Below are positions 5,261 to 62,647 of a stretch of 64,000 nucleotides of DNA, one piece after another. Every line of letters begins with the position of its first letter. Position 1 is the first letter of the stretch. The translations under genes and the position numbers were made by a program. Under the pieces are notes generated by a model that was given only the letters and a program-made list of their open reading frames with translations, was not told where the DNA came from and searched no databases. Source of the stretch: Candidatus Latescibacterota bacterium (GTDB taxonomy: Bacteria; Latescibacterota; UBA2968; UBA8231). Location: assembly GCA_965208105.1 (NCBI GenBank), contig OZ242318.1, forward strand, positions 608,001 through 672,000, in the 5' to 3' direction.

Positions 5261-5428
5261 CTAGTGTCCCGTCGCAGAGATAGGTTGACGAAATTGGGCC
5301 GCCGAGGCGCCCGGCTCACAAGGCGCCTGAGCGAGTCGTACCAGTGGTGTACGGCGAGTGAAGGCAACGCCGTGAGCCGGGATGGATCGGCGGAATAATG
5401 GCGACATATTTCTGCGACGGGACACTAG
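5261..5428. mobile_element. MITE copy A, 168 bp, IS630-like ends (type 1)
   Basis: 18-bp perfect TIR CTAGTGTCCCGTCGCAGA...TCTGCGACGGGACACTAG; nested internal inverted repeats; near-identical to 32898..33065 and 53577..53744. Confidence 0.9.
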
Positions 5429-7824
5429 CTGAAATGGGCGAAGTCCGCCACCGGGATCTGCTCCATGACGGTGGCGGCCGGCCGCAGCAGGTAGTCGCAG
5501 CCGGCGCGGGTCTCCAACACCAGGAGATCGGCGGGGGCGACAGTGCTCTCTCCGCCCTCCTGCTCGACCACCGCCACTTGGGCGGACGGCCAGGGGTTCT
5601 CCAGACGCAGGGTTCCGCCGGCGAGGGAACGCACGAGAACATAGTCCACTTCATCCGTTCTTTTCTCGGCTGAGACCAGAAAGGCCCCCGGCCCCCGCAG
5701 CGAATGGAAGCGGGCCGGCACCCCTGCGGGGATCCCTGGGAAAAGGTGCAGCACACCGGCCAGACCGGTGAGCATCATGTCCGCGAGAACCCGGCATATC
5801 CCCGGGCCGTGGTCCATCTGGAAGATGCCCGGGGCCCACAGGCGCACGGCTCCGTTCCTGGCGAAGGCATCCTCCTCATCGGGATAGCGGGCGCGTTCGA
5901 AGGCGGTCTCGACCTCACCGATGCGCAGCAGCTCGCACAGTCCCTGGCCGCCGAATCCCATGTCACCGCTGAAGCAGTTCTGCCCCGATTCCTCCAGATG
6001 CCTCCAGGTGCGGCGCGCCTGCTCGTACCATTCGCGGGGACCGTGCCACTTGCTCACCAGCTCGGCGGGAAAGACGAGGGGCAGCAGATAATTGTGGTCC
6101 TGGTAGTAGGGCTCCTGGTCCTCCCACGCCTTCCAGCAGCCCTGCGGCGTGGTCGGCGGCGGAGCCAGTCGTTCCAAGCGCGCGCGCCATTCCTCCACGA
6201 GCCCGGCATCTCTCCCGAGAACCCCGGCTGACGCAATGGCGCGCTGGAAGGCGCCGCGGAACATGGCCTGGGCGTAGAGGGAGTTGCGTCCCCAGGCGCG
6301 GAATTCCCTCCCCCTGGCCTCGAAGTGCACCGAGGGCACGATGATCCATTGCCGCCGCTCTTCGTCCCAGATTAGATAATCGGTGAAGAACAAAGCCACG
6401 TCGCGCAGCAGAGGATAGGCCACCTCCTCGAGGAAGGTTTGGTCCTGGGAATACTCATAGTACTGCCAGAACAACTGGGTCACCCAGGAGGAGGCGCTGG
6501 GATCGGTTCCCAGGGTCTGGTAGTCGGGCTGGGTGGTTTCGTTGCCGCCGATGCTGCCCCCGTGAGGGAAGCGCAAGCCGCGCATGCGGAAATATCGGGA
6601 GGCATCGCGGCGCGCCGCGGCGGCGGTGCGGTGGTAGTGGCGCAGATAGGGCTCAACCATGTCGAGGCGGTTGTTGGTGAACATGCCCCAGTAGACGCAC
6701 TGGATGTTCACATTGCTGTGAAAGTCGGCGTTCCAGGGCGGCACGTTCTCCCCCACCCAGGGTCCCTGCAAACCTGGGGATTGTCTGCCCGCCTCAAGTG
6801 CAGACCCGGCAAGATAGAGGGATCGGTAGTAGCCGCGCTCCACCGCCTCGGAGCCGACGCTGGCCAAGCCGCGCCGCCAGTAGCGGCGCCACCAACCCAG
6901 GTGGTCGTCCACAATCGCCCGGGCACCCGCCCGAACCGCCCGCGCCAGCCTCCTCCGCGCCTCGCCCTCGGTATCCTCAGCATCTTCGGAGCTGACGACG
7001 GTCAGCACCAGCGACCCGGAGCCCCGGGTTTCCGGCGTCCATACCCCCGAGAGCCGGCCTTCATGCGCCGCGGCGCTGCACTTGCCGGCGAGAGCAGCCA
7101 CCCCCACCGAGTAGGCGCCGCCGGCGGAGAAATGCTGGGTCAGCAGGCAAACGCCGTCTTCGGCGCTGGCCTCCGGCGCCGGGTTGCGCGGCAACCGGGG
7201 GCGGCCCAGGTCCCAGTGAATCTTCTCCGCAACCAGATCCTCTCCATCCCGGGTGAACTCGATGTAGAGCACCTGAAAGCGCCGCGAAACCAGGGCGCGC
7301 ACCTCCGCCCGCGTCCCGGCACCGCTCCAGGTCAGGCCTGCGCCCCCCGAGCGCAAGCTGGCCCTCAGGGTGCAGGAGGCGATGACGCCGCCCTCGTCCA
7401 GGTGAAGAATCAGGCGCCCGCAGGTGGTCAGGTGGGGGAGCGCGGCGCAGTAGGAGGCTCTGGCTTCCCCGCGCAGCCTTTCGAAACCTTGCTCGTCGTC
7501 TTCGAAGTAAGTCTGCCGGTAAGGGCCGAAGGTCTCTCCGATGAATTGGCTGCCATCGTCGTTCTGGCGGTTCCACACGTCCGATTTGCCCAGGACGAAG
7601 CCCATGGCGTCGGGATAGCCGTAAATCATGGCTCCGAAGTCGCCATTGCCAACGGGGGCTCCCGCGCGCCAGTCCGCCGGCGGTCCTTGAGGAGCCCCCC
7701 AGACCATGTCATGGCGGTCCAGGAGCTGGGCAAGGTCTATGGAAAAACGCGACGGCTGCGCGGGCAGGGATTGCCGCGGCAGGCGCTCCGCGGCCAGGCT
7801 TGCAGGGGGCTTTTCAGTGCTCAC
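5425..7824 (-). CDS. GH95-like glycoside hydrolase (alpha-L-fucosidase family)
   Basis: PVGNGDFGAM, PGLQGPW, WNADFHSNVNIQCVYW, YPLLRDVALFF, FHSLRGPGAFLVSA. Confidence 0.75.
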   Translation of the reverse strand: MSTEKPPASLAAERLPRQSLPAQPSRFSIDLAQLLDRHDMVWGAPQGPPADWRAGAPVGNGDFGAMIYGYPDAMGFVLGKSDVWNRQNDDGSQFIGETFGPYRQTYFEDDEQGFERLRGEARASYCAALPHLTTCGRLILHLDEGGVIASCTLRASLRSGGAGLTWSGAGTRAEVRALVSRRFQVLYIEFTRDGEDLVAEKIHWDLGRPRLPRNPAPEASAEDGVCLLTQHFSAGGAYSVGVAALAGKCSAAAHEGRLSGVWTPETRGSGSLVLTVVSSEDAEDTEGEARRRLARAVRAGARAIVDDHLGWWRRYWRRGLASVGSEAVERGYYRSLYLAGSALEAGRQSPGLQGPWVGENVPPWNADFHSNVNIQCVYWGMFTNNRLDMVEPYLRHYHRTAAAARRDASRYFRMRGLRFPHGGSIGGNETTQPDYQTLGTDPSASSWVTQLFWQYYEYSQDQTFLEEVAYPLLRDVALFFTDYLIWDEERRQWIIVPSVHFEARGREFRAWGRNSLYAQAMFRGAFQRAIASAGVLGRDAGLVEEWRARLERLAPPPTTPQGCWKAWEDQEPYYQDHNYLLPLVFPAELVSKWHGPREWYEQARRTWRHLEESGQNCFSGDMGFGGQGLCELLRIGEVETAFERARYPDEEDAFARNGAVRLWAPGIFQMDHGPGICRVLADMMLTGLAGVLHLFPGIPAGVPARFHSLRGPGAFLVSAEKRTDEVDYVLVRSLAGGTLRLENPWPSAQVAVVEQEGGESTVAPADLLVLETRAGCDYLLRPAATVMEQIPVADFAHFS

Positions 7825-7833
7825 GAGAATGGC

Positions 7834-8724
7834 TCACAGCGGCTGCCCGGCGGCGGTTGCGCGCCTGATCCGGCGCTCCAGGCGGAAGGCGAGAAATTCG
7901 TAGGGGTGCCATGGGGAATAGTGCTCCAATATGGCCTCCTCCGTGCAGGCAAGTCCGATCTCTCCACAGTAACCGCGCACCTCCGAATCTACCGGGATCT
8001 GCCCGTACTCCCCGAGAAGAACGGCGACGTGGTTGATGCTGTAGGGCCCCAGCCCCTTGACCGCGCCAAGCCTGGCGAGGACCTCCCGCGCTCCACCGCG
8101 GACGATCTCGCCGTCGGCGCCGAAGGCCTGGGCGATGTTCCACAAATACCCGGCCCGGTATCCCAGCCTGCATCTCTCCTCCAGCGCCCGGAGACCCAGG
8201 GCCATGACCATCTGACACGAGGGGAAATAGGCAGGTCCTCCTCCGCCATCCGTCATGGCGTTGCATTCGGACACCAGAAGGTGGCACATCTGGCGCGTGA
8301 AGGCCCAGGAGGCATTGGTCGTGAACAAGGTCTTCACCACGTCCTCGAAGAGTGTCGAGCCCTTCAGCATCCGCGCCCCGCCCCTTCGAGCGAGGCGGTG
8401 AATCCGCCGGTCAAGCTCCCGGGAGCGGCGCACGAAGGGACCGGGATCGATATCCAACCCCAGCATGTAGGAGCAGCGGCGGCGCAGCAGCTTCTTTTCC
8501 GGGGCCGTCAGGTTGCTTGCGCACCGGCACGATACGGCCGCCCCGGCGCCGGAATCCTCAACGGCGAGGTGAACGAGCTTCCCGTTGACGTACTCGTGCC
8601 GGCTCAGGATTCCGTCCCGCTCATCCCAGCTGAATGGAGCCAACTGAACCCAACCGTGAGAATGGACGAGCAGATCGAGATCGAAATAGCTCGCCCGGAA
8701 GCGAAACCTGGCTGCCTGCTTCAT
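7834..8724 (-). CDS. HhH-GPD DNA glycosylase (AlkA/OGG-like)
   Basis: LFEDVVKTLFTTNASW, FPS, LGYRA, HhH VKGLGPYS, IPVDS. Confidence 0.8.
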   Translation of the reverse strand: MKQAARFRFRASYFDLDLLVHSHGWVQLAPFSWDERDGILSRHEYVNGKLVHLAVEDSGAGAAVSCRCASNLTAPEKKLLRRRCSYMLGLDIDPGPFVRRSRELDRRIHRLARRGGARMLKGSTLFEDVVKTLFTTNASWAFTRQMCHLLVSECNAMTDGGGGPAYFPSCQMVMALGLRALEERCRLGYRAGYLWNIAQAFGADGEIVRGGAREVLARLGAVKGLGPYSINHVAVLLGEYGQIPVDSEVRGYCGEIGLACTEEAILEHYSPWHPYEFLAFRLERRIRRATAAGQPL

Positions 8725-8880: not shown

Positions 8881-9001
8881 GGTCGAATACGGCGTTGCGC
8901 TCCCTCCCCGAATCCCCTCGATTCGCCTCGGCCGCACGCCTTGCCTTCGACCGCCATGCCTCGGCCTCGCCTGCAGAGCAACTTTATCAACGGGTTGCTA
9001 G
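8881..9001. mobile_element. Degenerate MITE copy G, type 3 end with the shared core
   Basis: Right end ACTTTATCAACGGGTTGCTAG; core GGTCGAA..GGCGTTGC..CGCCTT..TTCGACC at 8881..8952; left end not recognisable. Confidence 0.6.
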
Positions 9002-10230
9002 ATCACGTCCTCGGCATGCCCGGCCAGGGATCTCTCGAGGGCCGCCATGCCGGCGCCCAGGTCCAGCACGGCCCCCATCTTGGTGAAGGCCACACCAAGG
9101 GCGTGAAGCACCCTGAAGAGATTGGGCGCCCGGCATTGCTCTCCCATCTGCCCGATGCGCACGATGTTCAGGTCAGGATCGATGGAGCCTGCTATCTCCA
9201 CCTTGAACATCTTCGACATGTAGCCCCTCGCCTGCGCGTCGTCCAGACCCCGAGGAACCTCAATTGCAACCACTGAATTGAGACGGTATTCTTTGGGCGT
9301 GAACAATTTAAGTCCCATCTCTTCAATGCCATCCTGAAGTGCAAGGGAACTCCACAGATGGCGCTCGAAGCGTCTTTCGAGAGTCTCGTCGATTATCAGG
9401 CGAAGAGCCTCGTGCATGGCCAGCAGGCCCGGCACCGGGGCGGTGTAATGGTACTGGTGGCCACTCCAGAACCTTTCGGCTCGCAGCGCGTCCAGGCACC
9501 AGTGCGGCTTGGGCCGGGTGTTCCCTTCGATCACCTCCCAGGCACGGGGCGAAAAGGAGATCAGAGAAACCCCGGGCAGCGACGAAAGCCCCTTCTGGCT
9601 GCCGGTGAGCACCACGTCGAGACCCCACTCGTCCTTCTTGAGGGGCATGGTGCTCAAGGTGCAGACCGCGTCCAGCAAGGTCAGGGCTCCGTGTTCCCGG
9701 GCAAGCCGCGCGATTTTGACCAGGTCCGTGTTCCACACCCCGCAGGCCGTCTCTCCCTGCACCATGGTTACCGCGTCGAAGCGCTCCGCCCCCAGACGGC
9801 GCTCCACCTGTTCAGCCGCGATGGGACCTCCCTCAGGTGCCTCGAGGATATGCACTTCGGCGCCGACTCCCGCGGCCATTTCCGCAAAGCGGCCGCTGAA
9901 CCACCCATTCCTCAGCACGAGGACCTTGCGCCCGGGCCACAGAAGGTTGCCCACGGCCATTTCCATCGAGGCCGAGGCGGGCCCCGATACCCCGAAGATA
10001 TGGCCGTCCCAGGTCTGGAAAACGTAGCGCGCCATTTCCTTGATGTGGCGCACCACCATGTCCATGCTTTCGCCGAGGTGGTTGATCACCATGCTGCCCG
10101 CCCGCGCCACCTCGGCCGGCACCGGCACCGGCCCGGCCCCCATGAGCAGCAATGGCTCGGCCGGAAGAACTTCGACGATAGAGGGCAAGTGGGGACGGGG
10201 GATACTCGAGTCGGCCGGGCTCAATTCCAA
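8998..10230 (-). CDS. Class V aminotransferase (alanine/serine-glyoxylate type)
   Basis: LLMGAGP, GETACGV, LDAVCT, PLP lysine in TGSQKGL, YHYTAP, RIGQMG. Confidence 0.9.
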   Translation of the reverse strand: MELSPADSSIPRPHLPSIVEVLPAEPLLLMGAGPVPVPAEVARAGSMVINHLGESMDMVVRHIKEMARYVFQTWDGHIFGVSGPASASMEMAVGNLLWPGRKVLVLRNGWFSGRFAEMAAGVGAEVHILEAPEGGPIAAEQVERRLGAERFDAVTMVQGETACGVWNTDLVKIARLAREHGALTLLDAVCTLSTMPLKKDEWGLDVVLTGSQKGLSSLPGVSLISFSPRAWEVIEGNTRPKPHWCLDALRAERFWSGHQYHYTAPVPGLLAMHEALRLIIDETLERRFERHLWSSLALQDGIEEMGLKLFTPKEYRLNSVVAIEVPRGLDDAQARGYMSKMFKVEIAGSIDPDLNIVRIGQMGEQCRAPNLFRVLHALGVAFTKMGAVLDLGAGMAALERSLAGHAEDVI

Positions 10231-10288: not shown

Positions 10289-11698
10289 TCACAGGTTGAG
10301 GGCCTCGCCAAAGGCTTCGCCCGCCGCTTCCATGACCGCCTCGGCCAGGGTCGGGTGGGCGTGAACCGTGTGCAGGACTTCCTCGTAGGTTGCCTCCATG
10401 CTGCGCGCAAGGCCGATCTCGGCGATCAGCTCGGTGGCCTCCGCCCCGATGATGGAAGCGCCAAGGAGTTCTCCGTAGGACGCCCCGAAAACCAGTTTCA
10501 CCAGGCCCTCGGTCTCTCCGGTTGCCCGCGCCTTGCCGCTGGCCGAAAAAGGGAAGCGGCCGACCTTGACTTCGTGTCCGGCCTCCCTCGCCTCGCGCTC
10601 CGTGAAGCCGACGCTGGCGACCTGCGGCTGGCAGTAGGTACAGCTGGGGATGTTGCTGCGGTCGATCTCGGGGCGCTCGCGGTCTGCGATAAACTCCACT
10701 GCCGCCACCCCCTCCGCCGAGGCCATGTGCGCCAACTGAGGCGCCCCGACCACGTCGCCAATGGCGCTGATTCCCTTCACGCTGGTCTGCAGCCGCCCGT
10801 CCACCTCGATGGCGCCGCCGCCCGTGCGCACTCCAAGAGCCGCCAGGCCAAGCCCCTCGAGATTGCCCTCCACACCCACCGCCATCAGCACCTTGTCGAC
10901 CTGCTCGCAGCCTTCGCCCTTCTCCCCCTTGTAGCGCACTTCGACCTGGTCCTCACCGGGCTCGATGGCTTCGACCCTGACGCCGGTTTCGATTTCGATG
11001 CCCTGCTTCTGCAGACTTCGATCCAGAAGTTCGGCCACCTCCTCGTCCTCCCGCGGCAGTACCTGGGGCAGGGCCTCCAGCACCTTCACCCTGGTGCCGA
11101 AGGCGTTGTAGAAATAGGCGAACTCTATCCCGATGGCCCCGGCTCCGACGATGATCATGGAATCCGGACGCTCATCGGTGATCATGGCCTCCTGGCTGCT
11201 CAGGACCAGACTGCCGTCGATCTCGACTCCGGGAATGCTGCGCGGCCGTCCGCCGGTGGCAATGATGATGTGACGGGCGTCTAGAAGCGCCGAGGCCTGA
11301 TCCTCCCCGTCCCTCACTTCCACCTTTTTGGCCGGCGTGATGAGCCCCCTGCCGGTGAACACCTGGACCCCGTTCTTGCTCATCAGGTAGGCAACACCCG
11401 AGGCCAGTTGACCCGCCACCCTGCGGCTGCGCCCGATGATCTTCTTCCAATCGAAGCCTACCTCACCGACCTCGAAACCGAATTCGCCGGCGCGCTGGAA
11501 GAGCCTGTAGATCTCCGCCTGCTTGAGCAGTGCCTTGGTAGGAATACAGCCCCAGTTGAGGCAAACCCCGCCGAGGGAATCCTCCTTTTCCACCACCGCG
11601 GCCTTCAGGCCCAGCTGGCCGGCGCGGATCGCGGCGGTGTAGCCCCCTGGTCCCGCCCCGATGACGACGATATCGAACTCTTTGCTCTCTGTTGCCAT
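10289..11698 (-). CDS. lpdA: Dihydrolipoyl dehydrogenase
   Basis: GAGPGG, GGVCLNWGCIPTK, GAGAIGIE, HAHPTLAE. Confidence 0.97.
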   Translation of the reverse strand: MATESKEFDIVVIGAGPGGYTAAIRAGQLGLKAAVVEKEDSLGGVCLNWGCIPTKALLKQAEIYRLFQRAGEFGFEVGEVGFDWKKIIGRSRRVAGQLASGVAYLMSKNGVQVFTGRGLITPAKKVEVRDGEDQASALLDARHIIIATGGRPRSIPGVEIDGSLVLSSQEAMITDERPDSMIIVGAGAIGIEFAYFYNAFGTRVKVLEALPQVLPREDEEVAELLDRSLQKQGIEIETGVRVEAIEPGEDQVEVRYKGEKGEGCEQVDKVLMAVGVEGNLEGLGLAALGVRTGGGAIEVDGRLQTSVKGISAIGDVVGAPQLAHMASAEGVAAVEFIADRERPEIDRSNIPSCTYCQPQVASVGFTEREAREAGHEVKVGRFPFSASGKARATGETEGLVKLVFGASYGELLGASIIGAEATELIAEIGLARSMEATYEEVLHTVHAHPTLAEAVMEAAGEAFGEALNL

Positions 11699-15047: not shown

Positions 15048-17711
15048 ATGAGGGGATTCCTCCTGCTTTCTGCCCTGGCCTTTCTCGTCCCTCCCTCCCT
15101 GTCCGCCGCAGGCCTGCAGGGCATGGTGCGCGATGCCCGGACCAGAGAGGCGCTGCCGGGCGCAAACGCCTACCTGGAAGGTACGGGGCGCGGCACAACC
15201 ACGGATTCCGATGGACGATTCGAACTCGCCGGTATCGCCGCGGGCAGCCAGGTCATCATCGTGACCTTCATAGGATACGAGGAGTACCGTGGTCCCGTTG
15301 ACCTGGGAGAAGGTGTGGTCGAGCTCATCGTGGAACTCCAGCCGGAGGTGTTCCGCGGCAAGGAGGTCATCGTCGTCGCCAACCGCGCCAGGCTGCGCGA
15401 AACGCCGGTGGCCTTCTCCGACGTCCCCAAAGCTGAACTGCAACGCAAGCTCGGCTCGCGGGACCTGCCGCTTATACTGAATGATTCGCCGGGTGTCTAC
15501 GCCACCGAGCAGGGTGGCGGCGCCGGCGACTCCCGCCTCAATGTGCGAGGATTCGACCAGCGCAACGTCGCCGTCATGATCAACGGCGTGCCGGTCAACG
15601 ATATGGAAAACGGCTGGGTCTACTGGTCCAACTTCGACGGTCTGAGCGATGCCGCCTCCTCGATTCAGCTGCAGCGCGGACTGGGCGCCTCGAATCTGGC
15701 CATCGCCTCGGTTGGCGGCACCGTGAACATCGTCACCGATCCCGCCCTCCAGGAGCGCGGATTCACAATCAAGCAGGAGGCCGGGAGCGGCGCCTTTTTC
15801 AAGACCAGGTTCGACTTTTCATCCGGTTTGCTGGACGACAAAGCGGCATTCACCCTGGGCGTCACGCGCAAAATCGGCGACGGGCTTCCGCAGCAGGCAT
15901 GGTCGTCGGGATGGTCCTATTTCGGGGCTTTCAGCTTTCTGGCATCCGGGGATCACAAGGTCGATGTGTTCGTCGCCGGCGCTCCGCAACGCCATGGACA
16001 ACGCCTCTACAAGCAGTCCGTCGCTACCTTCGACCACGACTACGCCCGCTCCCTCGGCATCGAGGTGAGGGACGCGGGCGATTTCGGGCTGAACTACAAC
16101 CCGAACTGGGGGCGCTCGCCGTTTCAATCCTATCGCGAGTACTTCAACGGGAAACTGCACCATGCCCGCGACAACGAGGTAATCATGGAGCGGGAAAATT
16201 ACTACCACAAGCCCCAGGTCAACCTGAACTGGTACTGGACCCCCGGAGTTCGGTTCCTCTTGTCCAACGTGTTTTATTTTTCTCGGGGGAAAGGCGGCGG
16301 CACCGGACGCATGGGTCCCGACCCGGGCAGGCTTGCCGACGGCAGCATCGACTGGAGGCGCGCCGGCGGCGAATTGAACTCCCGGGCGGCGTCGGAAGCC
16401 GACCCCGGTCTGGTGGAAACCGGCCAGGTGGGCGGCAATGAGACTGCTGCCCGGACCATCATCCGGAACTCGGTCAACCAGCATTTCTGGTACGGCTACC
16501 TGGGAACCGCCGAATACCGCCTGAGCACCGCCCTGAAGCTGGCCTGGGGCCTGGACCTGCGCTACTACCAGGGCCAGCACTGGCGCGAAGTGCGCAACCT
16601 GCTCGGTGCCGATTACTTCGTCTGCGAAGGGGACGCCAACGCCGCCACCGTGGTCAAGCGCCCGGGCGACAAGGTCTCCTACCACAACGATGGTCTCACG
16701 CGCTGGGGCGGAGGATTTGCCCAGCTTGAAGGGCAGTTCAGCAAGTTCACCGCGTTTGCGAGCGCCTCGGGATCGTTGACCGGCTACCAGCGCATCGACT
16801 ACTTCCGCCCCAGGATCGACGGCGATTGGGACCGGACCGGCTGGAAAAACTTCACCGGCTTCACCTTGAAAGCGGGCGGCAACTACAACGCCACACCCTT
16901 TGTCAATCTCTACGCCAACCTCGGCTGGCTTTCCTCCGCACCCAAATTCGACTCCGTTTACCACTTCGACAACAGCCTCTACGATCCCACCTTCAACGAG
17001 AAGGTAGCCTCCCTCGAACTGGGTGCCGGTTACATCGATCCAGGCCTGGTCAGCGCCCACGCGAACCTCTATTTCACCAGGTGGATGGACCGCTCCTGGC
17101 CCAAGAGCATCTACAGCCCCGGGCTCGGCCAGCGCCTGCGATTCCTGCTCAACGGCATCGACGCCCGACATGCGGGCGTAGAGCTCGACCTGAGGGCGCG
17201 GCCCCACTCCATGGTGGAAGTCCGCGGCATAGTGTCCCTGGGCGACTGGCGATGGCTCAACGATGTGGAGGTGACATTTTCACCGGAAGAGGACCCGGCG
17301 GCCGCGGGCAACTTTCAGGCCTATGCCAAGGGACTGAAGGTGGGTGATTCGGCGCAAAAGACCCTGGCCTTGAGCGCGGCGGTGTCGCCGGTGGACCGCC
17401 TCTACGCCTCGCTGGGCCTGAGGCGATTCATGGACCACTACGCCAGGTTCGACCCGGCCAACCGCACCGATCCCGACGACCGCCGGCAATCCTGGCGCCT
17501 CCCCGATTACAATCTGACCAGTCTGCACGTGGGGTACAGCCTTCCCGGGGATGCATTGCGCCATATCAAGCTGCGGCTGCACGTCTTCAATCTGCTCGAC
17601 AAGCGCTACGTCTCCGACGCGGATGACGGCGACCGCCACGACGCGGCAGGCGCCGTCGTATTTCTCGGGCTTCCGCGCCGGTGGATTGTCTCGCTGTCCT
17701 ACGAATATTAG
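15048..17711 (+). CDS. TonB-dependent receptor with carboxypeptidase-regulatory-like N-domain
   Basis: Signal peptide, GTTTDSDGRF, plug NVRGFDQRNVAVMINGVPVND, VFNLLDKRY, terminal LSYEY. Confidence 0.93.
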   Translation: MRGFLLLSALAFLVPPSLSAAGLQGMVRDARTREALPGANAYLEGTGRGTTTDSDGRFELAGIAAGSQVIIVTFIGYEEYRGPVDLGEGVVELIVELQPEVFRGKEVIVVANRARLRETPVAFSDVPKAELQRKLGSRDLPLILNDSPGVYATEQGGGAGDSRLNVRGFDQRNVAVMINGVPVNDMENGWVYWSNFDGLSDAASSIQLQRGLGASNLAIASVGGTVNIVTDPALQERGFTIKQEAGSGAFFKTRFDFSSGLLDDKAAFTLGVTRKIGDGLPQQAWSSGWSYFGAFSFLASGDHKVDVFVAGAPQRHGQRLYKQSVATFDHDYARSLGIEVRDAGDFGLNYNPNWGRSPFQSYREYFNGKLHHARDNEVIMERENYYHKPQVNLNWYWTPGVRFLLSNVFYFSRGKGGGTGRMGPDPGRLADGSIDWRRAGGELNSRAASEADPGLVETGQVGGNETAARTIIRNSVNQHFWYGYLGTAEYRLSTALKLAWGLDLRYYQGQHWREVRNLLGADYFVCEGDANAATVVKRPGDKVSYHNDGLTRWGGGFAQLEGQFSKFTAFASASGSLTGYQRIDYFRPRIDGDWDRTGWKNFTGFTLKAGGNYNATPFVNLYANLGWLSSAPKFDSVYHFDNSLYDPTFNEKVASLELGAGYIDPGLVSAHANLYFTRWMDRSWPKSIYSPGLGQRLRFLLNGIDARHAGVELDLRARPHSMVEVRGIVSLGDWRWLNDVEVTFSPEEDPAAAGNFQAYAKGLKVGDSAQKTLALSAAVSPVDRLYASLGLRRFMDHYARFDPANRTDPDDRRQSWRLPDYNLTSLHVGYSLPGDALRHIKLRLHVFNLLDKRYVSDADDGDRHDAAGAVVFLGLPRRWIVSLSYEY

Positions 17712-17761
17712 TGTCCCGTCGCAGAAACAGGCTGCGGCGCCAGGACCGTTCCGGGACACTA
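17709..17761. mobile_element. Internally deleted MITE copy E (53 bp, type 1 ends)
   Basis: TAGTGTCCCGTCGCAGAAA...CGGGACACTA; the two ends form the stop codons of the two convergent genes. Confidence 0.75.
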
Positions 17762-18328
17762 TTGCAGGCGGCGGAAGGTCATGGTGTTCGTCATCATCTC
17801 CTCACCTCCCTGGTACATGGACCAGGTCTGGGACATCTCGTCGCCGCCGTCGTAGGCAATGGACACGGAGTGCATGTGCGGTTCTTCCGCTGAATCCAGC
17901 GAGCCCTCTACCATCTCCAGGGTGAGGACTCTTTCCGTGGAGCTGGTCAGGATCATCCGGGGCTGGTTTCCCAGGGCGCAATAGTGCGTCATGGACAGCT
18001 TGCCCCCGCGGTCGTGGTAGACCGAGATCATCTCCTTCGGCGTGTCGGGGAAGTTGCGCTCCACCACGACGCTGCCGTTGGCCGTTACCCGGTACTCCGC
18101 CGCGACCCGGGCCATCGCGCCCTCTCCCCCTGCGGCTCCCTGCGGCATGCCGGCGGTGGCTATCCAGCGGCCGGCCAAGGCCTTGAGGCGCTCGAACTCC
18201 GGCGAGCCCACGTAGGGTGGCGGCGAATGGGCCTCCTCACCAGGCGGGACGGTCTCTTTATCGTTCTGGCCGGACACCGAGAGCGCGGAGAAGGCGGCGG
18301 CGAAGAGGACAAGTGTCGTTCTCATCAT
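17759..18328 (-). CDS. Exported hypothetical protein
   Basis: Signal peptide; FERLKALAGRW, EMISVYH, MTHYCALGNQPRM, PHMH. Confidence 0.75.
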   Translation of the reverse strand: MMRTTLVLFAAAFSALSVSGQNDKETVPPGEEAHSPPPYVGSPEFERLKALAGRWIATAGMPQGAAGGEGAMARVAAEYRVTANGSVVVERNFPDTPKEMISVYHDRGGKLSMTHYCALGNQPRMILTSSTERVLTLEMVEGSLDSAEEPHMHSVSIAYDGGDEMSQTWSMYQGGEEMMTNTMTFRRLQ

Positions 18329-32897: not shown

Positions 32898-33065
32898 CTA
32901 GTCTCCCGGCGCAGAGACAGGTTGACGCAATTGGGCCGCCGAGGCGCCAGGCTCACAAGGCGCCTGAGCGAGTCGTACCCGTGGTGTCCGGCGAGTGAAG
33001 GCAACGCCGTGAGCCGGGATGGATCGGTGGAATAATGGCGACATATTTCTGTGACGGGACACTTA
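32898..33065. mobile_element. MITE copy B, type 1 ends
   Basis: Same orientation and near-identical to 5261..5428; ends CTAGTCTCCC...GGGACACTTA. Confidence 0.9.
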
Positions 33066-53543: not shown

Positions 53544-53580
53544 CTGGCAGCCCGTTGAGAAAGTCCATCCGGGCTGCTAG
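53544..53580. repeat. Collapsed type 3 element (37-bp hairpin)
   Basis: CTGGCAGCCCGTTGAGAAAGT...CGGGCTGCTAG; left part matches the reverse complement of the end at 8981..9001. Confidence 0.55.
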
Positions 53581-53744
53581 TGTCCCATCGCAGAAATATG
53601 TCGCCATTATTCCGCCGATCCATTCCGGCTCACGGCGTTGCCTTCACTCGCCGTACACTACTGGTACGACTCGCTCAGGCGCCTTGTGAGCCTGCCGCCT
53701 CGGCGGCCTAATTTCGTCAACCTATCTCTGCGACGGGACACTAG
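53577..53744. mobile_element. MITE copy C, type 1 ends, inverted relative to A and B
   Basis: CTAGTGTCCCATCGCAGA...TCTGCGACGGGACACTAG, 168 bp. Confidence 0.9.
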
Positions 53745-54733
53745 GCCATGGTCTTGAGCATCTCCAGGGTCACCCTGTAGCGCAGGGGGCGGCCGGCTGC
53801 CCAGTTCTCGAACTCGGCGATGGCATAATCGGCCTGGCGCAGGATTTCGTCTCCCTGGGAACCGGCAATGTGCGAGCTGAGATGCACGTTGGGCAGGGTG
53901 TAGAACTCCGAGCCCTCCAGCGGCGGCTCGGGATCGGTCACGTCGAGCAGGGCGGTGAGGTCGGGGCGCTCCCTCAGTACTCCTATGAGGTCCTCCTCCA
54001 CCACCTGGGCCCCGCGTCCGGTGTTGATGAAGGTCGCGCCCTCGCGCATGCCGGCGAACAGCCTGCGGTCCAGCATGCCGCGGGTGGCGGGAAGGTCGGG
54101 CAGATGGTTGCTGACCACGCAGGAGCGGGCGAAGACCGCATCCAGCCCCACCTTCTCCACCCGGAGACGGGCAGCTTCCTCATCCTTCAGGAAGGGGTCG
54201 TGGGCGATCACCTTCAGCTCGAAGGGCCGCAGGAGCCGGCAGACCCTGCGGCCCACCATGCCCGCCCCGATGATGCCCACGGTCTCGCCGAATGCTCCCG
54301 GTCCGCGGGGAGCCCGGCGGCGCAGCGCGGGCGAAAGCAAGGAGCGGGTATTGCGGAAGTACCCCTTGCACGAGAGGAGGATCTGGGCCAGGGTGAACTC
54401 CGCCACCGGCACCGCGTTGGCTGCCCAGGAGCTGACCAGGAGAATGCCTCGGCGCAGCAGGGGAGGGGCGAAACTCTGCACCGTGCCGGCGGCGTAGAAT
54501 ACCGCCTGCAGGGCCGGCAGCCGGGCCAGCTCCCCGGCCCCCATGGGCACCATGCCCCAGGTGGAGAAGATGACCTCCAGATCCCGAAGGCGGTCGGCAT
54601 GGTCGGCAAAGTTTTCCGATGTAACCACGTGGGGATAGAGGTCCACGAGCCTCTCCAATCTCTCTCTTCGGCCCCGGGCGAAGACGCGCTCCAATCTCTC
54701 GGGATCCTGGTTGAAGAATGCCGCTTTTTTCAT
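53741..54733 (-). CDS. D-isomer-specific 2-hydroxyacid dehydrogenase family
   Basis: GAGMVG, FINTGRG, LDVTDPEP, SHIAG. Confidence 0.92.
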   Translation of the reverse strand: MKKAAFFNQDPERLERVFARGRRERLERLVDLYPHVVTSENFADHADRLRDLEVIFSTWGMVPMGAGELARLPALQAVFYAAGTVQSFAPPLLRRGILLVSSWAANAVPVAEFTLAQILLSCKGYFRNTRSLLSPALRRRAPRGPGAFGETVGIIGAGMVGRRVCRLLRPFELKVIAHDPFLKDEEAARLRVEKVGLDAVFARSCVVSNHLPDLPATRGMLDRRLFAGMREGATFINTGRGAQVVEEDLIGVLRERPDLTALLDVTDPEPPLEGSEFYTLPNVHLSSHIAGSQGDEILRQADYAIAEFENWAAGRPLRYRVTLEMLKTMA

Positions 54734-55102
54734 TATCCCCGGGCTATTCAGGTAAGGGCGGCGCCGGCCATGCGTCCATGGCGCATGTGGGTGAAGAGAT
54801 CCGCCGGGGGCTCCCACGCTCGGGCGGACCGGCACCGGTATGCTCCCCCGGTGACACCTCGGCGGCCGGGCCAATCGAGGCTCCTAAACTAGGAGGACGG
54901 CAGACCCGCGCAATGCCCCCGAGGCCACCGTCCGGGCATAGCCGGGCATGGACAGCAATTCCGGATTTGGCTTTCTTTGCACCACCCAAAAGGGGCCGGC
55001 ACCAACCGCTCCGGGCGTTGCTCCGATGGCCCGGATCAATCGCCCTGGACTGGGAGGCTACCTCGCTACATCCTGACCGTCCGTCCCGGCAAGGAGAGCA
55101 GA

Positions 55103-56185
55103 ATGAGCTACGGTCTCGACATTCCCCGGGAAGGCGCCCTCGACCTGGTTTCCCTCGGCGCCCTGGTGCACCGGCTCGATCCGGGTATCATCCCCTTCCG
55201 CAAGGCGAACGACTGCAGAATCCACGTGAGCGGCGGCGAGTTCAACGTGGCGGCCAACCTGGCGGATTGCTTCGGCATGCGGACGGGAATAATCACCGCC
55301 ATGGTCGACTACCCCATCGGCGACCTCATCTCCGAGCGCGTCAGGGCCATGGGGGTGAAGCCGTTCTACAAGCGCTTCGACCACGACGGTGTCAGCGGAC
55401 CCAACATGGCCACCGTCTTCAGCGACCGGGGCTACGGGGTGCGCGCCCCCCTGGTCTTCTACAACCGCTCCAACGAGGCGGCGGCGCGGCTCAAGCCCGG
55501 AGACTTCGACTGGGACGCCGTCTTCGCCGGCGGGGTGCGCTGGTTTCACAGCGGGGGCATCTTTGCGGCCCTGTCCGAGTCCACCGCCGCGGTGATCGTC
55601 GAGGCCATGCAGGCGGCCAAGGCACGTGGTGCGGTTGTCTCCTTCGATCTGAACTTCCGGGAAAAACTGTGGAGCGTCTTTGGAGGCCTGGAAGGGGCCC
55701 AGGCCACCCTCGGGAACATTGTCGACAACGTGGACGTCATCGTCGGCAACGAGGAAGACCTGCAGAACGGGCTTGGAGTGTCCGGACCGGAAATTGGGGA
55801 TCGCTCCAAGCTCGACCCCAGCAGCTTCTTCCTCATGATCGACCGGGTCCTGGAGCGCTACCCCCAGCTAAGGATCATCGCCACCACCCTGCGCGAGGTG
55901 CACTCGACCAACCGCCACAGCTGGGGCGCGGTGGCCTGGGTCGACGGGGAGGCCTACGTGGCTCCCACCTGCGAGCTGGACGTTTACGACCGTGTCGGCG
56001 GCGGCGACGGATTCGCCTCCGGGTTCTTCTACGGGCTCCTCTCCGGCGCCACCCCGGAGGAAGCCACGCGCCTGGGCTGGGCCCACGGCGCCCTGCTGAC
56101 CACCTTTCCGGGGGACACCACCATGGCGACGGCGGCGCAGGTGCGCTCCTTCGCCGAAGGCGGCTCCGCCCGCATCCAGCGCTAG
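55103..56185 (+). CDS. PfkB family sugar kinase (KdgK-like)
   Basis: GGEFNVA, FDLNFREKLW, NEED, DRVGGGDGFASG. Confidence 0.9.
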   Translation: MSYGLDIPREGALDLVSLGALVHRLDPGIIPFRKANDCRIHVSGGEFNVAANLADCFGMRTGIITAMVDYPIGDLISERVRAMGVKPFYKRFDHDGVSGPNMATVFSDRGYGVRAPLVFYNRSNEAAARLKPGDFDWDAVFAGGVRWFHSGGIFAALSESTAAVIVEAMQAAKARGAVVSFDLNFREKLWSVFGGLEGAQATLGNIVDNVDVIVGNEEDLQNGLGVSGPEIGDRSKLDPSSFFLMIDRVLERYPQLRIIATTLREVHSTNRHSWGAVAWVDGEAYVAPTCELDVYDRVGGGDGFASGFFYGLLSGATPEEATRLGWAHGALLTTFPGDTTMATAAQVRSFAEGGSARIQR

Positions 56186-56283
56186 CGCCGGTGCGCGATA
56201 TCGAGCTTACGAGCGAAGGCAACGCCGCGGGACGGGATGCAACCGCGGCCGAATTCACCCGGAATTGCGCCCGCTGGCACTTG
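56182..56283. mobile_element. Degenerate half copy F of the type 2 MITE
   Basis: 56210..56283 resembles the reverse complement of the left part of 62481..62647 (GGCAACGCCGCG..GGGATGCA..GCGGCCGAATTCAC..GGAATTGCGC..GGCACT); starts at CTAG. Confidence 0.7.
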
Positions 56284-56991: not shown

Positions 56992-57002
56992 GTCCTTTTT
57001 CC

Positions 57003-59262: not shown

Positions 59263-60060
59263 TCACCTGCCCTGGTAGAGGTCGCGCGGCTGGCGGCTGT
59301 CCGATGCCACCTCGATGTAAAACTCGCGCTGGCTGGGTGTCATTTTCTCCAGAGCTTCCCTGCTGGGGAAGAACCTGTGGAACTTCATGCCGGCGTGGTG
59401 GTACTTGTAGAACAAGGTGACTCGGTCGCTGTCGCCGCGCCAGGGGGTGGCCCCGTGGCACAGGGCCTCGGTGAAGATGATGGCCGAGCCGGCCCTGCAC
59501 GGCACGCAGCGCACCAGGGAAGGGTCGACACCGTTGCCGAATTGCCTCATGTCCTCGGGGATTGGAAAGTTGGCCTTGTGGCTGCCGGGCACGCAGGCAA
59601 AGCCGCCTTCCTCCTCGCCGGTGTCGGCCAGGTCGAAGGCGACCACGGTATGGCCGCTGAAGATGCGGCCGTTGAAGTGGCGGTACATCAGGGTGATGTC
59701 CTGGCCGTTGCTGTCGAACGAGCCGCCGCCGTGCAGCTCGAGGCCGCCGAAGCCCCTGCTGCGAATGAGGCCGTAGGCGATCTCCAGGCGCAGCTCGTGG
59801 TGGATGATCTCCTTCAGGATGTCGATGACCGGAGGCAGATCGATCAGTTCGCAGAACGCCGCATCGGCGCTGGTCAGGTCGCCCAGGGACCGCAGACAGT
59901 CATCCTCCTTGTGTTGGACGCCCTCGGGCAACTCCCCGTTGGGCACCGCCATCAGGCGCCTGGCGGTGTCGATCAGGCGGTCGCAGTGGGCTCGGGTGAG
60001 CACGTCCTCGAGGACCAAGTAGCCGTTGACGTCGAAAAGGTATTTCTGGCGGGCGTCCAT
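59263..60060 (-). CDS. PhyH-like Fe(II)/2-oxoglutarate enzyme (HxG variant)
   Basis: YLFDVNGYLV, LHGG, GGFACVPGSHK, FTEALCHG. Confidence 0.88.
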   Translation of the reverse strand: MDARQKYLFDVNGYLVLEDVLTRAHCDRLIDTARRLMAVPNGELPEGVQHKEDDCLRSLGDLTSADAAFCELIDLPPVIDILKEIIHHELRLEIAYGLIRSRGFGGLELHGGGSFDSNGQDITLMYRHFNGRIFSGHTVVAFDLADTGEEEGGFACVPGSHKANFPIPEDMRQFGNGVDPSLVRCVPCRAGSAIIFTEALCHGATPWRGDSDRVTLFYKYHHAGMKFHRFFPSREALEKMTPSQREFYIEVASDSRQPRDLYQGR

Positions 60061-60134
60061 TGGAATCTCCTGGGGATGGCGGCACCTGGTGCCGCGGATT
60101 CTTGAGGGTTTAACGGCTGGGCGGCGGGTCCGGA

Positions 60135-61141
60135 CTATTGCCCCTGATCCACCTCTATTCTTTCCCGGCGCCGCGCCGATTCGAGCAGCGCGTCGCACAC
60201 CCTCATGGTGTCCAGCGCCTGGCGCGGCCAGCTCTCCTGCAGCTCTCCGCTGCGCGCGATTTCCGAGAATCTTTCGACCATGAGCACGGTCTGCGCGGGG
60301 CCTCTCACCCGGCGCTCGAGATTGTCCCCGCCCTTTCCGTGAATCCAGTACCTCGACCTTTCCGGGTCAGCCGGAACCACGAAATCGTCGCAGACCAGGG
60401 ACCGTCGGGTCCCAGCCACCTCGAACCACCTGCGCGACGCCGTATCGAAGCCGCAGTCGAACGAGGCCATGCGCTCCCCCTCGAACCAGAGCAGACCTGC
60501 GAGATTGAAGTCCACTCCCCTGTTAAAACGCGCCGCGGCGTAGACACTGACGGGCAATTCATCGAAAGCCCACAAAATGGCGCGGACGCAGTAGTATCCC
60601 AGGTCTCCCAGGGCGCCGCCGCCGAGCTCCTTGCTGACGCGGATATTGTCCTCCGGGATCTCGTCCCAGTTGAAGGAGAAGGCCGCGGTAACCCGCCGCA
60701 GCGGTCCCAGGGTCCCGGATTTCATGTCCCCTTCATCATCGCCGTGCGCCGGTGGTGGACCCACATGACTCCGTCCATCAGCTGCACCTGGTTCGCCCGG
60801 CAGGCGGAGACCATGGCCCGCGCTTCGGCCGCGTTTGCGGCGAGGGGTTTTTCACACAGCACGTGCTTCCCCCTCTCGGCGGCCTTGATGGTCCACTCCA
60901 TGTGCAGGGAGGGCGGCAAGGGGATGTATACCGCCTCGATGTCATCCTGCTCCAGCAGGGCCTCGTAGCCTGCGTAGGTCCTCTGCAAGCCGCGGGCGGC
61001 TCCCCAGCTGCGGGCGCGCTCCCCGTCGCGGCTGGCCACCGCCACCAGTTCGGCGCCCTGCGCCGCGTCCATGGCCTGCCCCACGCCGGCGGCGATGTTG
61101 GCCGTCCCCAAAATTCCCCAGGGGACCTCTTTGCGCTCCAT
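60135..61141 (-). pseudogene. Gfo/Idh/MocA oxidoreductase split by a single-base frameshift
   Basis: N-half 60722..61141 (WGILGTANIA, HVLCEKP) and C-half (GGGALGDLGYYC) join if one G is added to the G4 run at 60728..60731. Confidence 0.85.
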
Positions 61142-61270
61142 CCTGGCAGAACTCCTTTCAAGGTGTTGGCAGGGGCGTGGCGCCTGAAACTCGCGGAGGT
61201 GAGGGCCGGATGCCCGGCTGGCAGAAGCGCTTGTCGAAGCCCGGGGGCGGACCCTGTTCCCGCCTTCGGG

Positions 61271-62335
61271 TCATCTGCCCAGGTGGGCCTTCACTATATC
61301 GATGACGAGGGCGATGTCGTTGCGCGCATCTTCCACCGGGGTGCGGCAGACGGCTCCCTCGGTGACGCAGGAGTGAAAGTGGCGCAGCTCGCAGAGGAAG
61401 GCGTTGTCCCATTCCACCGCTGGTTCCTTGCAGAAGGTCCTGCCCTCCTCGTCCACACCCTGTATGGAGACTCTGGAAGGGATTCCACGGGCGAAACCGC
61501 TGGGATAGTTGACGATCACCCGCCGGTCATCGGCGTAGACCTCGAGGGACTCGGTGAAGTTCCACAGCCCGGGCAGGGACACCCAGGAGGCGGCGCAGCG
61601 CGCTCCGCTCTCGTAGGCCAGGACGGTGTTGATGCCGCGGCCTTCATTCCAGATCTCGGTGCTGACCACTCTTCGTGGCTGCCCCATCATCAGGCGCAGC
61701 CCGTAGATGTCGTGGATCATGCTGCCGGCGATGGTGCGGAAGGCCGAAGCCACATGCGGAGGAACGCCGCTGCCCAGCGCCTCCCTGGCAATATCCGGCA
61801 CCGTAACCTCCGGGACCGCCGGCAGGTCGTCGAAGCGCTTGAGCCGCAGGTGGCGAAGGTGGAACTCGTTGCCCGTGTGCAGATGGTTGATCTGCACGAA
61901 GCGGATGGAGCTCATGCCCCCCACCTCGCGATGGGCGATCTCATAGGCCGGATCGTAGACCTTCATGTAGGCCGCCATCCCCACCCTGCCCGAGGACCGG
62001 GCGGCGGCGATGACAGCGTCGATGTCGGGCAGGGAGAAGCACAGGGGCTTCTCGATGAGAACGTGCTTGCCCGCTTCGAATGCGGCGAGGGCCACCTCGG
62101 TCTTGGGATCGGAGTGGCACAGCAGCACCGCGTCCAGGTCCGCGCCCAGAAGCTCGCGGAAATCGTCGGTGTGGAAGGCAACCCCGTAGTCTGCCGCGAT
62201 GGTGCGGGCAAGGGTCGGCGAGATGTCGCAGAGCCCGGCTACCTCGAACTCCTGGTCCAGCATCATCAGGTTGGGCAGGTGGTGGACCTGGGCGATCGCC
62301 CCGCAGCCCACCAACCCTATGCGAATGCGTTTCAT
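61271..62335 (-). CDS. Gfo/Idh/MocA family oxidoreductase
   Basis: VGCGAIA, HVLIEKP, IHD. Confidence 0.92.
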   Translation of the reverse strand: MKRIRIGLVGCGAIAQVHHLPNLMMLDQEFEVAGLCDISPTLARTIAADYGVAFHTDDFRELLGADLDAVLLCHSDPKTEVALAAFEAGKHVLIEKPLCFSLPDIDAVIAAARSSGRVGMAAYMKVYDPAYEIAHREVGGMSSIRFVQINHLHTGNEFHLRHLRLKRFDDLPAVPEVTVPDIAREALGSGVPPHVASAFRTIAGSMIHDIYGLRLMMGQPRRVVSTEIWNEGRGINTVLAYESGARCAASWVSLPGLWNFTESLEVYADDRRVIVNYPSGFARGIPSRVSIQGVDEEGRTFCKEPAVEWDNAFLCELRHFHSCVTEGAVCRTPVEDARNDIALVIDIVKAHLGR

Positions 62336-62480
62336 GAATCTCCCTTCATCGACTTCAGTCCCCGGTCCGGATCGGCAGAGACGGCGGCGCGGCGCCTGGA
62401 TGGAATATGGGGTCCCCGCTCCAAGGCCGGGGCGGCGGGAAACCTGGGCCCGGGTTCAGGCGCGACTGTACCCGCCTGTA

Positions 62481-62647
62481 CTAGTGCCTGCTTGCGCAAT
62501 TCCGCGTGAATTCGGCCGCCGCTGCATCCCGGCTCGCGGCGTTGCCCTCCCTCGCCGTACACTCCAGGTACGACTCGCTCAGGCGCCTGGCGAGCCGGGC
62601 GCTTCTGCGCCCTCGTTCGTACGCTTAATTACGCAAGCAGGCACTAG
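62481..62647. mobile_element. MITE copy D, 167 bp, type 2 ends with the shared core
   Basis: TIR CTAGTGCCTGCTTGCG(C/T)AATT; internal 62528..62599 nearly identical to the core of copies A-C. Confidence 0.88.

Follow-up and report, generated by a model that had tools for sequence, protein, structure and literature searches.

Miniature inverted-repeat elements of a Latescibacterota genome and their probable relationship to the Correia elements of Neisseria

Correia elements, which were the first bacterial transposable elements of the miniature inverted-repeat kind (MITEs) to be described and which affect gene expression in pathogenic Neisseria, are the described system closest to a set of small repeats in a 64,000-nucleotide stretch of the genome of Candidatus Latescibacterota bacterium (assembly GCA_965208105.1, contig OZ242318.1, positions 608,001 to 672,000), which as a whole is called the window below. 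In the available text of PMC2649163, the Correia inverted repeat is 26 bp long and reads TATAG[CT]GGATTAA..., the repeat is described as found only in Neisseria and as having no identified mobilising mechanism, and its transcribed hairpin is described as bound or cut by RNase III; the published account also emphasises that the core is conserved. The available part of PMC13714241 adds that RNA 3' ends inside Correia repeats of Neisseria coincide with RNase III sites, and that of PMC10969869 that the long Correia form carries an IHF site. The parts at hand of two recent MITE overviews (PMC10969869, PMC11602168) make no mention of Correia relatives outside Neisseria, and none of the papers listed by a literature search uses the term 'Correia-like'.

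The elements of the window are inverted repeats of about 166 bp with TA at both sides, in which end sequences of three types surround a common centre of 52-54 nt. Judged by sequence comparison they are distant relatives of the Correia/NEMIS MITE, and their centre appears to be the core of a known kind of element rather than new cargo. The reading that we regard as probable is that they are non-autonomous, TA-duplicating MITEs related to Correia elements, whose centre is kept by selection on the element lineage. Loci from other genomes (numbered with an L) were obtained by a scan of one genome per species with a centre-only pattern, which yielded at least 75 loci and gives a distribution that is a lower bound. 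A covariance model, R1, for which 63 distinct centres served as seeds, was then run over 1.47 Mb, made up of these loci and the window. The window contains two remnants beside six copies, of which A, B, C and D are full, F has an internal deletion and G has a single end. They are listed here with boundaries from TA to TA and with their strand, which in A and B is that of the purine-rich 'GA' sequence.

5262-5427 (166 bp), + strand: copy A, full, type 1 ends; centre 5319-5371, R1 score 91.6 bits
8871-9000 (homologous part), - strand: copy G, one-ended, type 3; centre 8881-8933, R1 score 72.0 bits, E 5e-15
17709-17761 (53 bp), strand undefined: type 1 remnant with both ends only and without a centre, found by reading the sequence and by end-motif search
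32899-33065, + strand: copy B, full, type 1 ends slightly decayed; centre 32956-33008, R1 score 84.6 bits
53547-53577 (about 30 nt), + strand: solo type 3 end with the start of an arm, from comparison with the type 3 ends of other loci
53578-53743, - strand: copy C, full, type 1 ends, inverted relative to A; centre 53634-53686, R1 score 84.2 bits
56183-56282, + strand: copy F, type 2, with an internal deletion that takes half of the centre; R1 score 23.5 bits
62482-62646 (165 bp), - strand: copy D, full, type 2 ends; centre 62538-62590, R1 score 83.7 bits

The six lettered copies had been placed correctly by the initial annotation, as seen from repeat comparison and from end motifs that occur more often than expected by chance, but its list lacked the 53-bp remnant and the solo type 3 end. 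The type 1 end occurs seven times in the window at three or fewer mismatches when 0.19 occurrences are expected, the type 2 end twice when 0.00 are expected, and GGCGTTGCC six times against an expectation of 1.64, the occurrence at 655 being unrelated. Copies A, B and C are 92-96% alike over about 168 nt (A and B are 95% identical over 167 nt, A and C 96% complementary over 170 nt). Copy D has in common with them only the central 97 nt or so, at 84-87% (87% between the centre of A and D), and its ends differ; F is 86% identical to D over 72 nt and retains GGCAACGCC at 56218-56226. In copy G the centre matches the others at 65-69% over 55 nt, with E from 3e-4 to 0.03 (69% and 3e-4 for D), the stem is replaced by GGTCGAA/TTCGACC, as had been pointed out and as sequence and alignment confirm, and the copy retains the right arm and right end, while unrelated small hairpins stand in place of the left arm and the left end is missing. 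The subtype of G is also found in L026 and L053. The solo type 3 end directly abuts copy C, by nested or adjacent insertion; it looks as if C inserted into a TA within the arm of a type 3 element, the remainder of which was lost. With a length of 165-168 bp, inverted-repeat ends, TA flanks and many copies (eight pieces in the window), the elements have the generic features of bacterial MITEs.

Outside the window the centre is found over a wide range of hosts. R1 has 105 matches in the 1.47 Mb, 99 of which were accepted; in 24 of these the search pattern is not present in its exact form, so that they are independent of it. Over the same sequence no match outside an element reaches 21 bits, and the chance loci that the pattern had selected score at most 20.6 bits. 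Six loci were rejected as chance matches of this kind (four from the same Streptomyces coding region, one from Bordetella and one from a gammaproteobacterial metagenome-assembled genome, or MAG), being either missed by R1 or scored no higher than 20.6 bits. Record titles and model scores indicate that at least 69 of the scanned loci hold real elements: at least 46 from Latescibacterota (10 assemblies), 10 from Gemmatimonadota, seven from 'Deltaproteobacteria' MAGs and three from uncultured bacteria and, among the matches listed, one each from Nocardioides aquiterrae, Streptomyces sp. and Guyparkeria sp. When the Nocardioides copy is compared by blastn with a plasmid collection, eight records with relatives in Streptomyces or Embleya are found, and the Streptomyces copy finds 17 Streptomyces records among 86, the other 69 being Ralstonia records with a short match. 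R1 scores four of the Streptomyces/Embleya relatives at 41.8-46.6 bits. The hosts of the centre are thus Latescibacterota, Gemmatimonadota, 'Deltaproteobacteria' MAGs, Guyparkeria, Nocardioides, Streptomyces and Embleya. When elements are instead defined by their ends alone, 79 full-length elements are obtained, and every one of them has the centre, 63 with the exact pattern and 16 with one to three changes or small insertions; conversely, R1 found no free-standing centre without arms in the 1.47 Mb.

A few of these loci deserve separate mention. Type 3 copies in L005 and L016, from MAGs labelled Gemmatimonadota and Candidatus Latescibacterota, are nearly identical, which may reflect either transfer between phyla that share a habitat or mislabelled or mis-binned records. 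What L056 and L068 hold looks like a single insertion that is present in two related MAGs. Two diverged centres lie within 900 bp of each other in Guyparkeria sp. TX1 (L045:9989-10064 and 10795-10871, 62.8 and 33.6 bits), with a common left flank and no clear inverted ends. Literature searches for MITEs in sponge symbionts and for a Streptomyces MITE of this kind found nothing relevant.

The relationship to Correia elements was examined in a 40-kb stretch of N. gonorrhoeae (L076), which holds five Correia elements, with the model R1, which contains no Neisseria sequence. In a search without filters the three best matches in L076 are all Correia elements, with 23.9, 23.6 and 21.8 bits (E 4e-4, 5e-4 and 1.5e-3), and thereby three of the five are covered; the next match has an E-value of 0.16. 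In the reciprocal direction, when a 106-bp Correia element is compared with the window by blastn, the four best matches are A and C (both E 0.014), D (0.043) and B (0.13), and the next match has an E-value of 1.1. The centre, which the initial annotation had seen as a motif carried by different transposons, thus matches an already described repeat, both by R1 and by reciprocal blastn. The correspondence extends to detail: both kinds of element duplicate TA at the target (the L076 copies are also TA-flanked), the two boxes ACAAGGCG and GGCAACGCCGT that bound the Correia core, as seen in L076:20011-20116, are also present in the window elements, the distance from box to box in Correia elements is 54 nt, and the offset of CCGTAC and the GTAC...GTAC apical hairpin equals that of type 1. 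A literature search with the boxes of the centre gave, in the search listing, a 1987 gonococcal paper as its sole match. In passing, the records NZ_CP119140.1 and NZ_CP119142.1, N. gonorrhoeae sequences of 2.17 Mb, are filed as plasmids and are evidently chromosomes.

Consider now the alternative that the resemblance is due to chance or convergence, so that the elements described here would form a MITE superfamily of their own. Several observations pull in this direction and thereby count against homology. The likeness resides in short boxes, 25 nt at 80-84%; the R1 E-values on Correia elements are about 1e-3, which is modest statistical support, and come from a shortened, rough calibration; and the two 155-bp Correia forms, which have an insert of about 50 bp in the core, give only partial matches of 8.8 and 12.1 bits. 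The 26-bp Correia inverted repeat is not present at the window ends, the printed 23-nt Correia ends have only the leading TA in common with those of the window, and Correia elements, at 105 or 155 bp, are not of the size of the present ones, at 165-168 bp. Convergence would, however, have to account for the fact that three of three top model matches and four of four top blastn matches are to the expected elements and in the expected register, when no match outside an element reaches 21 bits in the 1.47 Mb, and for the simultaneous occurrence of TA duplication, both boundary boxes, a spacing of 54 nt and the offset of the GTAC hairpin. We therefore regard it as unlikely, and true homology between the two groups, as far as sequences can tell, as very probable.

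If the centre is common to all these elements, their ends are not. About ten end types can be distinguished: types 1, 2 and 3 of the window, a variant 1b, two types in 'Deltaproteobacteria' MAGs, one in L036, one in Nocardioides, one in Streptomyces and Embleya, and one in Guyparkeria, where the ends are unclear. The combination of one centre with different ends, which had been noticed in the window, is thus found over several phyla and far more end types. All clear ends are TA-flanked, even where the next outer bases differ, and the order of parts is always TA, end repeat, arm of 56-58 nt, centre of 52-54 nt, arm, end repeat, TA. In eight end types 56-58 nt lie between TA and centre on each side, and the whole element is an imperfect palindrome, which forms one rod when folded. 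The Streptomyces element is longer than the others, about 188 bp against 165-168 bp. Between kinds, arms and ends have an identity of 0.54 when the shuffled baseline is 0.49, while the stretch of the centre that the search pattern leaves free has an identity of 0.60 against 0.47 in shuffled sequences.

From the constant geometry in eight end types follows that one old family with diverged ends fits the data better than three unrelated transposons. This bears on the original proposal that the centre is cargo spread by several transposases, in other words a separate functional motif of RNA or single-stranded DNA, captured and carried along by several unrelated transposon families. What remains of this proposal is the multiplicity of ends, some of which (type 3, Nocardioides and Correia) have no detectable similarity to type 1; capture would also agree with the covariation described below, with an insertion sequence (IS) that has the ends of the Streptomyces MITE and lacks the centre, and with the exchangeability of element halves, exemplified by a chimera in L019 (9925-10130), of which the left half is of type 2 and the right half of type 1, with the junction within the centre. 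Identical total geometry across end types points, however, to descent rather than to repeated capture, all ends are TA-flanked, the centre is present in 79 of 79 elements and never free-standing without arms, there is no match to an Rfam family, and the orientation preference that a host-level RNA function would lead one to expect is missing. Spread as cargo is therefore quite unlikely. Compound repeats, where one end type is inserted into or beside another, are found at L016:12644-12926, L035:912-1157, L051:15742-16024 and L015:10001-10240.

The conservation of the centre is structural. Copy A folds on its + strand as one rod, with a free energy of -109.4 kcal/mol and a z score of -11.5 (RNA parameters), and the rod has the parts that had been described for it: the stems CCGCCGA/TCGGCGG and CCCGGCTCAC/GTGAGCCGGG, a GAGCGA/GAGTGA loop and an apical hairpin. 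The - strand of D folds with -104.1 kcal/mol (RNA parameters), and F and G alone fold no better than shuffles (z -0.3 to -1.2). In the centre the helix is made up of GGC/GCC, a 3-nt AAC bulge, a 4-bp helix, two tandem G.A/A.G steps 2 bp apart and the apical hairpin, and along the purine-rich strand the order is CAAGGCG, a 3-bp helix, GA-2 bp-GA, the apical hairpin, GA-2 bp-GA, a 3-bp helix, C, the AAC bulge and GCC.

Compensatory changes are present in every helical segment of the centre. Across end types the 3-bp helix occurs as CCU/AGG, CGC/GCG and CCG/CGG, the 2-bp step as GC/GU, GC/GC and CC/GG, and the apical stem as GUAC/GUAC, GACCUGG/CCAGGUC, GAAUC/GAUUC and GUACU/AGUAC. The swap to CTCGC/GCGAG reported for copy D is real, and 36 of the 63 seed centres have A-U and 20 have G-C at the pair concerned. 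In these 63 seeds 87.6% of cells are paired, against 70.3% in shuffles, both-sided changes occur in 16 of 26 pairs, and the covariation score is 0.406, against 0.148 in shuffles and at most 0.101 with slid partners, where the shuffle controls leave the relatedness among copies in place. The model alignment of 105 rows gives similar pairing and covariation figures, but it is an alignment that was fitted to the structure. Such compensatory changes fit a hairpin in a single strand, and the centre is more conserved than the arms. Covariation and conservation across phyla thus lend support to a selected structured centre, as the initial annotation proposed.

The G.A steps on the 5' strand, which lie outside the search pattern, read GA in 77 and 81 of 89 unique matches, and the inner bases of the GA-NN-GA segments are CC against GG in type 3 and GC against GC elsewhere. 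In Streptomyces/Embleya copies that are independent of the pattern, G.A steps are exchanged for canonical pairs, GA/UU in L079 and GG/CC in L080, from which follows that it is the continuity of the helix, and not the identity of the G.A steps, that is conserved. With RNA parameters 74 of 88 unique centres fold more stably on the purine strand, and with DNA parameters 72 of 88 do, counts that include many related copies and are not independent.

Three known kinds of motif were considered for this structure and rejected. A direct-repeat protein site in GAGCGA...GAGTGA does not agree with the inner bases, which are complementary and not repeated. In a kink-turn a 3-nt bulge comes directly before tandem G.A pairs; by inspection of the alignment, the AAC bulge lies 4 bp from the first G.A step and on the other strand side. 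A hammerhead has a conserved catalytic core around three helices; here there is a single apical helix and no match to an Rfam ribozyme. At gathering thresholds the whole window has no Rfam match of any kind, and in E-value mode copy A and one type 3 copy match only unrelated families far below threshold (a plant miRNA precursor at 25 bits when 268 are needed). Small GC-rich palindromes of the kind CCTGCCTGC...GCAGGCAGG occur as insertions between GC and AACGCC within the centre, and in arms as well (L058:1633-1840, L010:3404-3625, L075:11488-11583); they are a second, tinier repeat family that targets these elements.

It could also be that the centre has no selected function at all, and that common descent, horizontal transfer and gene conversion have kept it alike, with the palindrome alone giving rise to apparent covariation. 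This explanation would accommodate the large number of near-identical copies that arose by recent duplication, the presence of one type 3 subtype in the MAGs of L005 and L016 with their different phylum labels, the recombination in the centre of which the L019 chimera is a case, and the relatedness that the shuffle controls leave in. It would not explain why arms and ends are near background identity when the centre is not, or why conservation extends to Neisseria, Nocardioides, Streptomyces and Guyparkeria. Where centres of type 1 and type 3 reside in one genome, they stay distinct and are thus not homogenised, and the non-palindromic AAC bulge and the one-strand G.A steps are kept, which is unlike a mere inverted duplication. 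A centre without function is accordingly very unlikely, and selection on the element lineage remains the explanation that we prefer.

A mechanism by which this selection could operate may be sketched as follows. Resident DDE transposases would move the elements in trans, and the specificity of the enzymes for ends would co-evolve with the ends, in the Streptomyces branch perhaps with an enzyme of IS5/IS427 type. The ends would then track the enzyme, while the apex would be held by selection on the element lineage: lineages that lose a foldable apex would stop spreading or turn harmful, and by this the centre would persist. When the rod is co-transcribed with neighbouring sequence, it would be a long double-stranded RNA hairpin, which, by analogy with Correia elements, would be handled by RNase III and give 3' ends, and the G.A internal loops might limit or position the cleavage. 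We infer that the centre may serve as a structural part of a MITE shaped like a rod, and that the rod, by analogy with Neisseria, may be processed by an enzyme of RNase III type; that RNA processing is also the role for which the centre is selected is a tentative suggestion, which may well be wrong.

How the elements are placed in genomes is informative here. They are mostly found at the 3' ends of genes, and among 32 copies for which both neighbours were called, the neighbours are convergent for 11, co-directional for 20 and divergent for one. In the co-directional contexts 11 copies have the purine strand in sense and nine in antisense orientation, and genes read into the purine strand from one side in 39 and from the other in 32 cases, where the counts come from a crude gene caller that left 24 of 99 copies without a call on either side. 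Neither comparison reveals an orientation bias, and there is none relative to GC skew (the purine strand is on the locally G-rich strand in 44 and on the C-rich strand in 39 cases). This argues against a function in host transcripts that depends on the strand, and it leaves the strand asymmetry of the fold without a visible counterpart in genomic placement.

These results are unfavourable to the preferred reading, and there are others to be set beside them. The raw identity of the centre, 0.76, is inflated, since the search pattern fixed about 23 of 53 positions; copy counts do not represent independent events, since many copies are recent duplicates; and, as detailed below, an autonomous partner has been found for none of the window's end types.

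When there is no strand-specific placement, a role of the centre in fold-back or synapsis at the DNA level becomes a serious rival to a role in RNA. The centre would in that case be needed for transposition itself, because its fast-folding apex nucleates a fold-back or cruciform that joins the ends or because it binds a conserved host protein that recognises DNA structure; put differently, it would be an 'enhancer' at the level of the element, which acts independently of the transposase that reads the ends. Such a role would agree with a centre that is conserved while ends change, with the constancy of the arm length in eight end types, with the lack of bias relative to transcription or skew, which is expected if host context is irrelevant, and with a strand asymmetry that is present also with DNA energy parameters. 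That G.A steps are swappable for canonical pairs would likewise mean that the helix matters and not a sequence read by a protein. On the other hand, cut-and-paste or replicative transposition by DDE enzymes is not, as a matter of general knowledge, known to need the interior of an element, and pieces without a centre do exist, the 53-bp remnant of the window and a MITE of about 100 bp described below, which may or may not have been mobile. We judge a requirement at the DNA level to be rather unlikely, though worth keeping in sight.

The question of which enzyme moves the elements has a partial answer in one branch. In Streptomyces sp. NBC_00825 (L082:3215-4184) there is an IS of about 970 bp, annotated as an IS5 family transposase, with two overlapping open reading frames (ORFs) that match DUF4096 (E 1.8e-28) and DDE_Tnp_1 (E 3.6e-7). 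For comparison, members of the IS427 group of the IS5 family are, in the available text of PMC3281130, about 830-865 bp long, with two frameshift-linked ORFs and 2-bp duplications. The end of the L082 IS agrees with the end of the centre-carrying Streptomyces MITE of L078 at 18 of 23 positions (shuffle p about 0.0005). A MITE of about 100 bp in its neighbourhood (L082:2503-2600) has the ends of this IS, with 20 matches in the aligned 23-nt terminal windows, and is without the conserved centre. Inside the IS, R1 finds nothing above 7.2 bits, and the centre is therefore not a leftover of that IS. An IS of IS5/IS427 type thus appears, from its end sequence, to be the only autonomous element that can be tied to any branch, namely that of Streptomyces.

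For the other branches the comparison with the IS5-type end of L082 gives less. The similarity of the type 2 and SMWZ01-type ends is weak (p 0.01-0.05 for the two together, 0.02-0.05 for type 2), types 1 and 1b are not significantly similar (p 0.11-0.26), and the type 3, Nocardioides and Correia ends show no similarity, the Correia ends scoring at background. No autonomous partner for the window end types was found in the 1.47 Mb, in plasmids or in phages. Among end pairs 350-4000 bp apart in the 1.47 Mb none forms an element, the single pair present being a mixture of two end types, and 33 solo ends are remnants or chance occurrences. A tblastn search with the Streptomyces IS ORFs found nothing in any of the loci or in the window, blastn against plasmids with the window centre, the whole of A, the type 1 end and the type 3 end gave no match or chance-level matches, and blastn against phages with element A and the Streptomyces element gave no match. 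The type 1 end does contain the reading frame ISATGH-stop, from which IS630-type ends had been suspected. The TA duplication to be expected of an IS630-derived MITE is present as well, but it is not exclusive to IS630; ISs of the IS427 group also make 2-bp duplications. IS5-family elements are present in N. meningitidis, and one of them is reported to duplicate TA.

What is new in these results is a Correia-type core beyond Neisseria, a helix with G.A steps in that core and a lead to IS5/IS427-type transposases, and a repeat regarded as confined to Neisseria now looks like part of a widespread family. If the relationship is true, Correia elements represent a single branch within a family found in at least Pseudomonadota, Actinomycetota, Latescibacterota and Gemmatimonadota, what has been called their 'conserved core' is a structured module of old origin, and one branch of the family points to transposases of IS5/IS427 type as partners, so that the question of what moves and maintains Correia-type elements becomes testable in harmless, cultivable bacteria. 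For genome annotation, the family accounts for dense repeats of about 166 bp on stop codons in sponge-associated and other GC-rich genomes. A more far-reaching conjecture, which we consider unlikely, is that the Correia-type centre is a pan-bacterial module, constrained by its structure as a single strand and required by the whole MITE superfamily whatever the transposase, being recognised by a universal host factor or acting through its own folding. Were it true, the persistence of Correia elements in the face of no known cognate transposase would have an explanation, and Streptomyces, Nocardioides and Guyparkeria would become tractable, non-pathogenic hosts for finding the Correia mobiliser.

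The genes of the window are ordinary chromosomal genes, according to a GC3-based ORF call and Pfam, and among 53 window ORFs scanned with Pfam there are no matches to transposase families. In this GC-rich genome each TA-ended piece of the window meets the stop codon of a neighbouring ORF at one of its ends, and the 53-bp remnant does so at both. A TAG stop is recreated by the G that comes directly after the TA at an element end. The right TA of A forms, with a G, the TAG stop of a GH95-like ORF (5428-7824, -), and the left TA of F the TAG stop of a PfkB-kinase ORF (54977-56182, +). The right TA of G, C and D lies within the stop codon of an aminotransferase ORF (9001-10230, -), a 2-hydroxyacid dehydrogenase ORF (53744-54874, -) and a cupin ORF (62647-63282, -), respectively. 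The 53-bp remnant sits exactly between the stop codons of the convergent ORFs 15048-17708 (+), which is TonB-dependent receptor-like, and 17762-18328 (-), which is unassigned. Copy B is flanked by hydantoinase B and amidohydrolase ORFs, both on the - strand, and is therefore antisense to that operon. Elsewhere in the window, at 60138-61141, a GFO/IDH/MocA oxidoreductase is divided over two overlapping minus-strand ORFs, the C-terminal part at 60138-60764 and the N-terminal part at 60725-61141, which look like one frameshift-split gene. Two stretches of the window are 81-83% identical at the DNA level to the chromosome of L019, labelled Candidatus Latescibacterota, so that the two source organisms are probably related.

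Among known systems, the elements resemble MITEs derived from IS5/IS427 in their 2-bp duplication and short terminal repeats and, in the Streptomyces branch, in an IS5-type end; they differ from them in that the interior of the Streptomyces element is not a deletion remnant of the L082 IS. ERIC elements have TA at both termini (available text of PMC3184786), and MITEEc1 is listed under IS630 (available text of PMC11602168). ERIC/MITEEc1 and Nezha, which are associated with IS630, are likened to the present elements by description only, being also small, TA-flanked and intergenic and giving a hairpin-forming transcript. The same holds for REP/REPIN sequences with RAYT, which are also abundant intergenic palindromes with structure-preserving changes; REPs, by contrast, are about 20-35 nt long, have no terminal inverted repeats with TA flanks and rely on a RAYT gene that is present in single copy. 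Correia elements differ from those of the window in hosts, Neisseria as against other phyla, in arms of about 25 nt instead of 56-58 nt, and in sizes of 104-108 and 153-157 bp, a size class to which the present elements do not belong. The G.A steps, in the R1 alignment, are only partly retained in the Correia core, and no counterpart of the insert of about 50 bp in the 155-bp Correia form was seen in the elements here. In both groups, however, terminal inverted repeats surround a conserved directional core and the whole element folds as a hairpin, and the deletion derivatives of several lengths that are found for Correia elements are comparable to copy F and the 53-bp remnant of the window.

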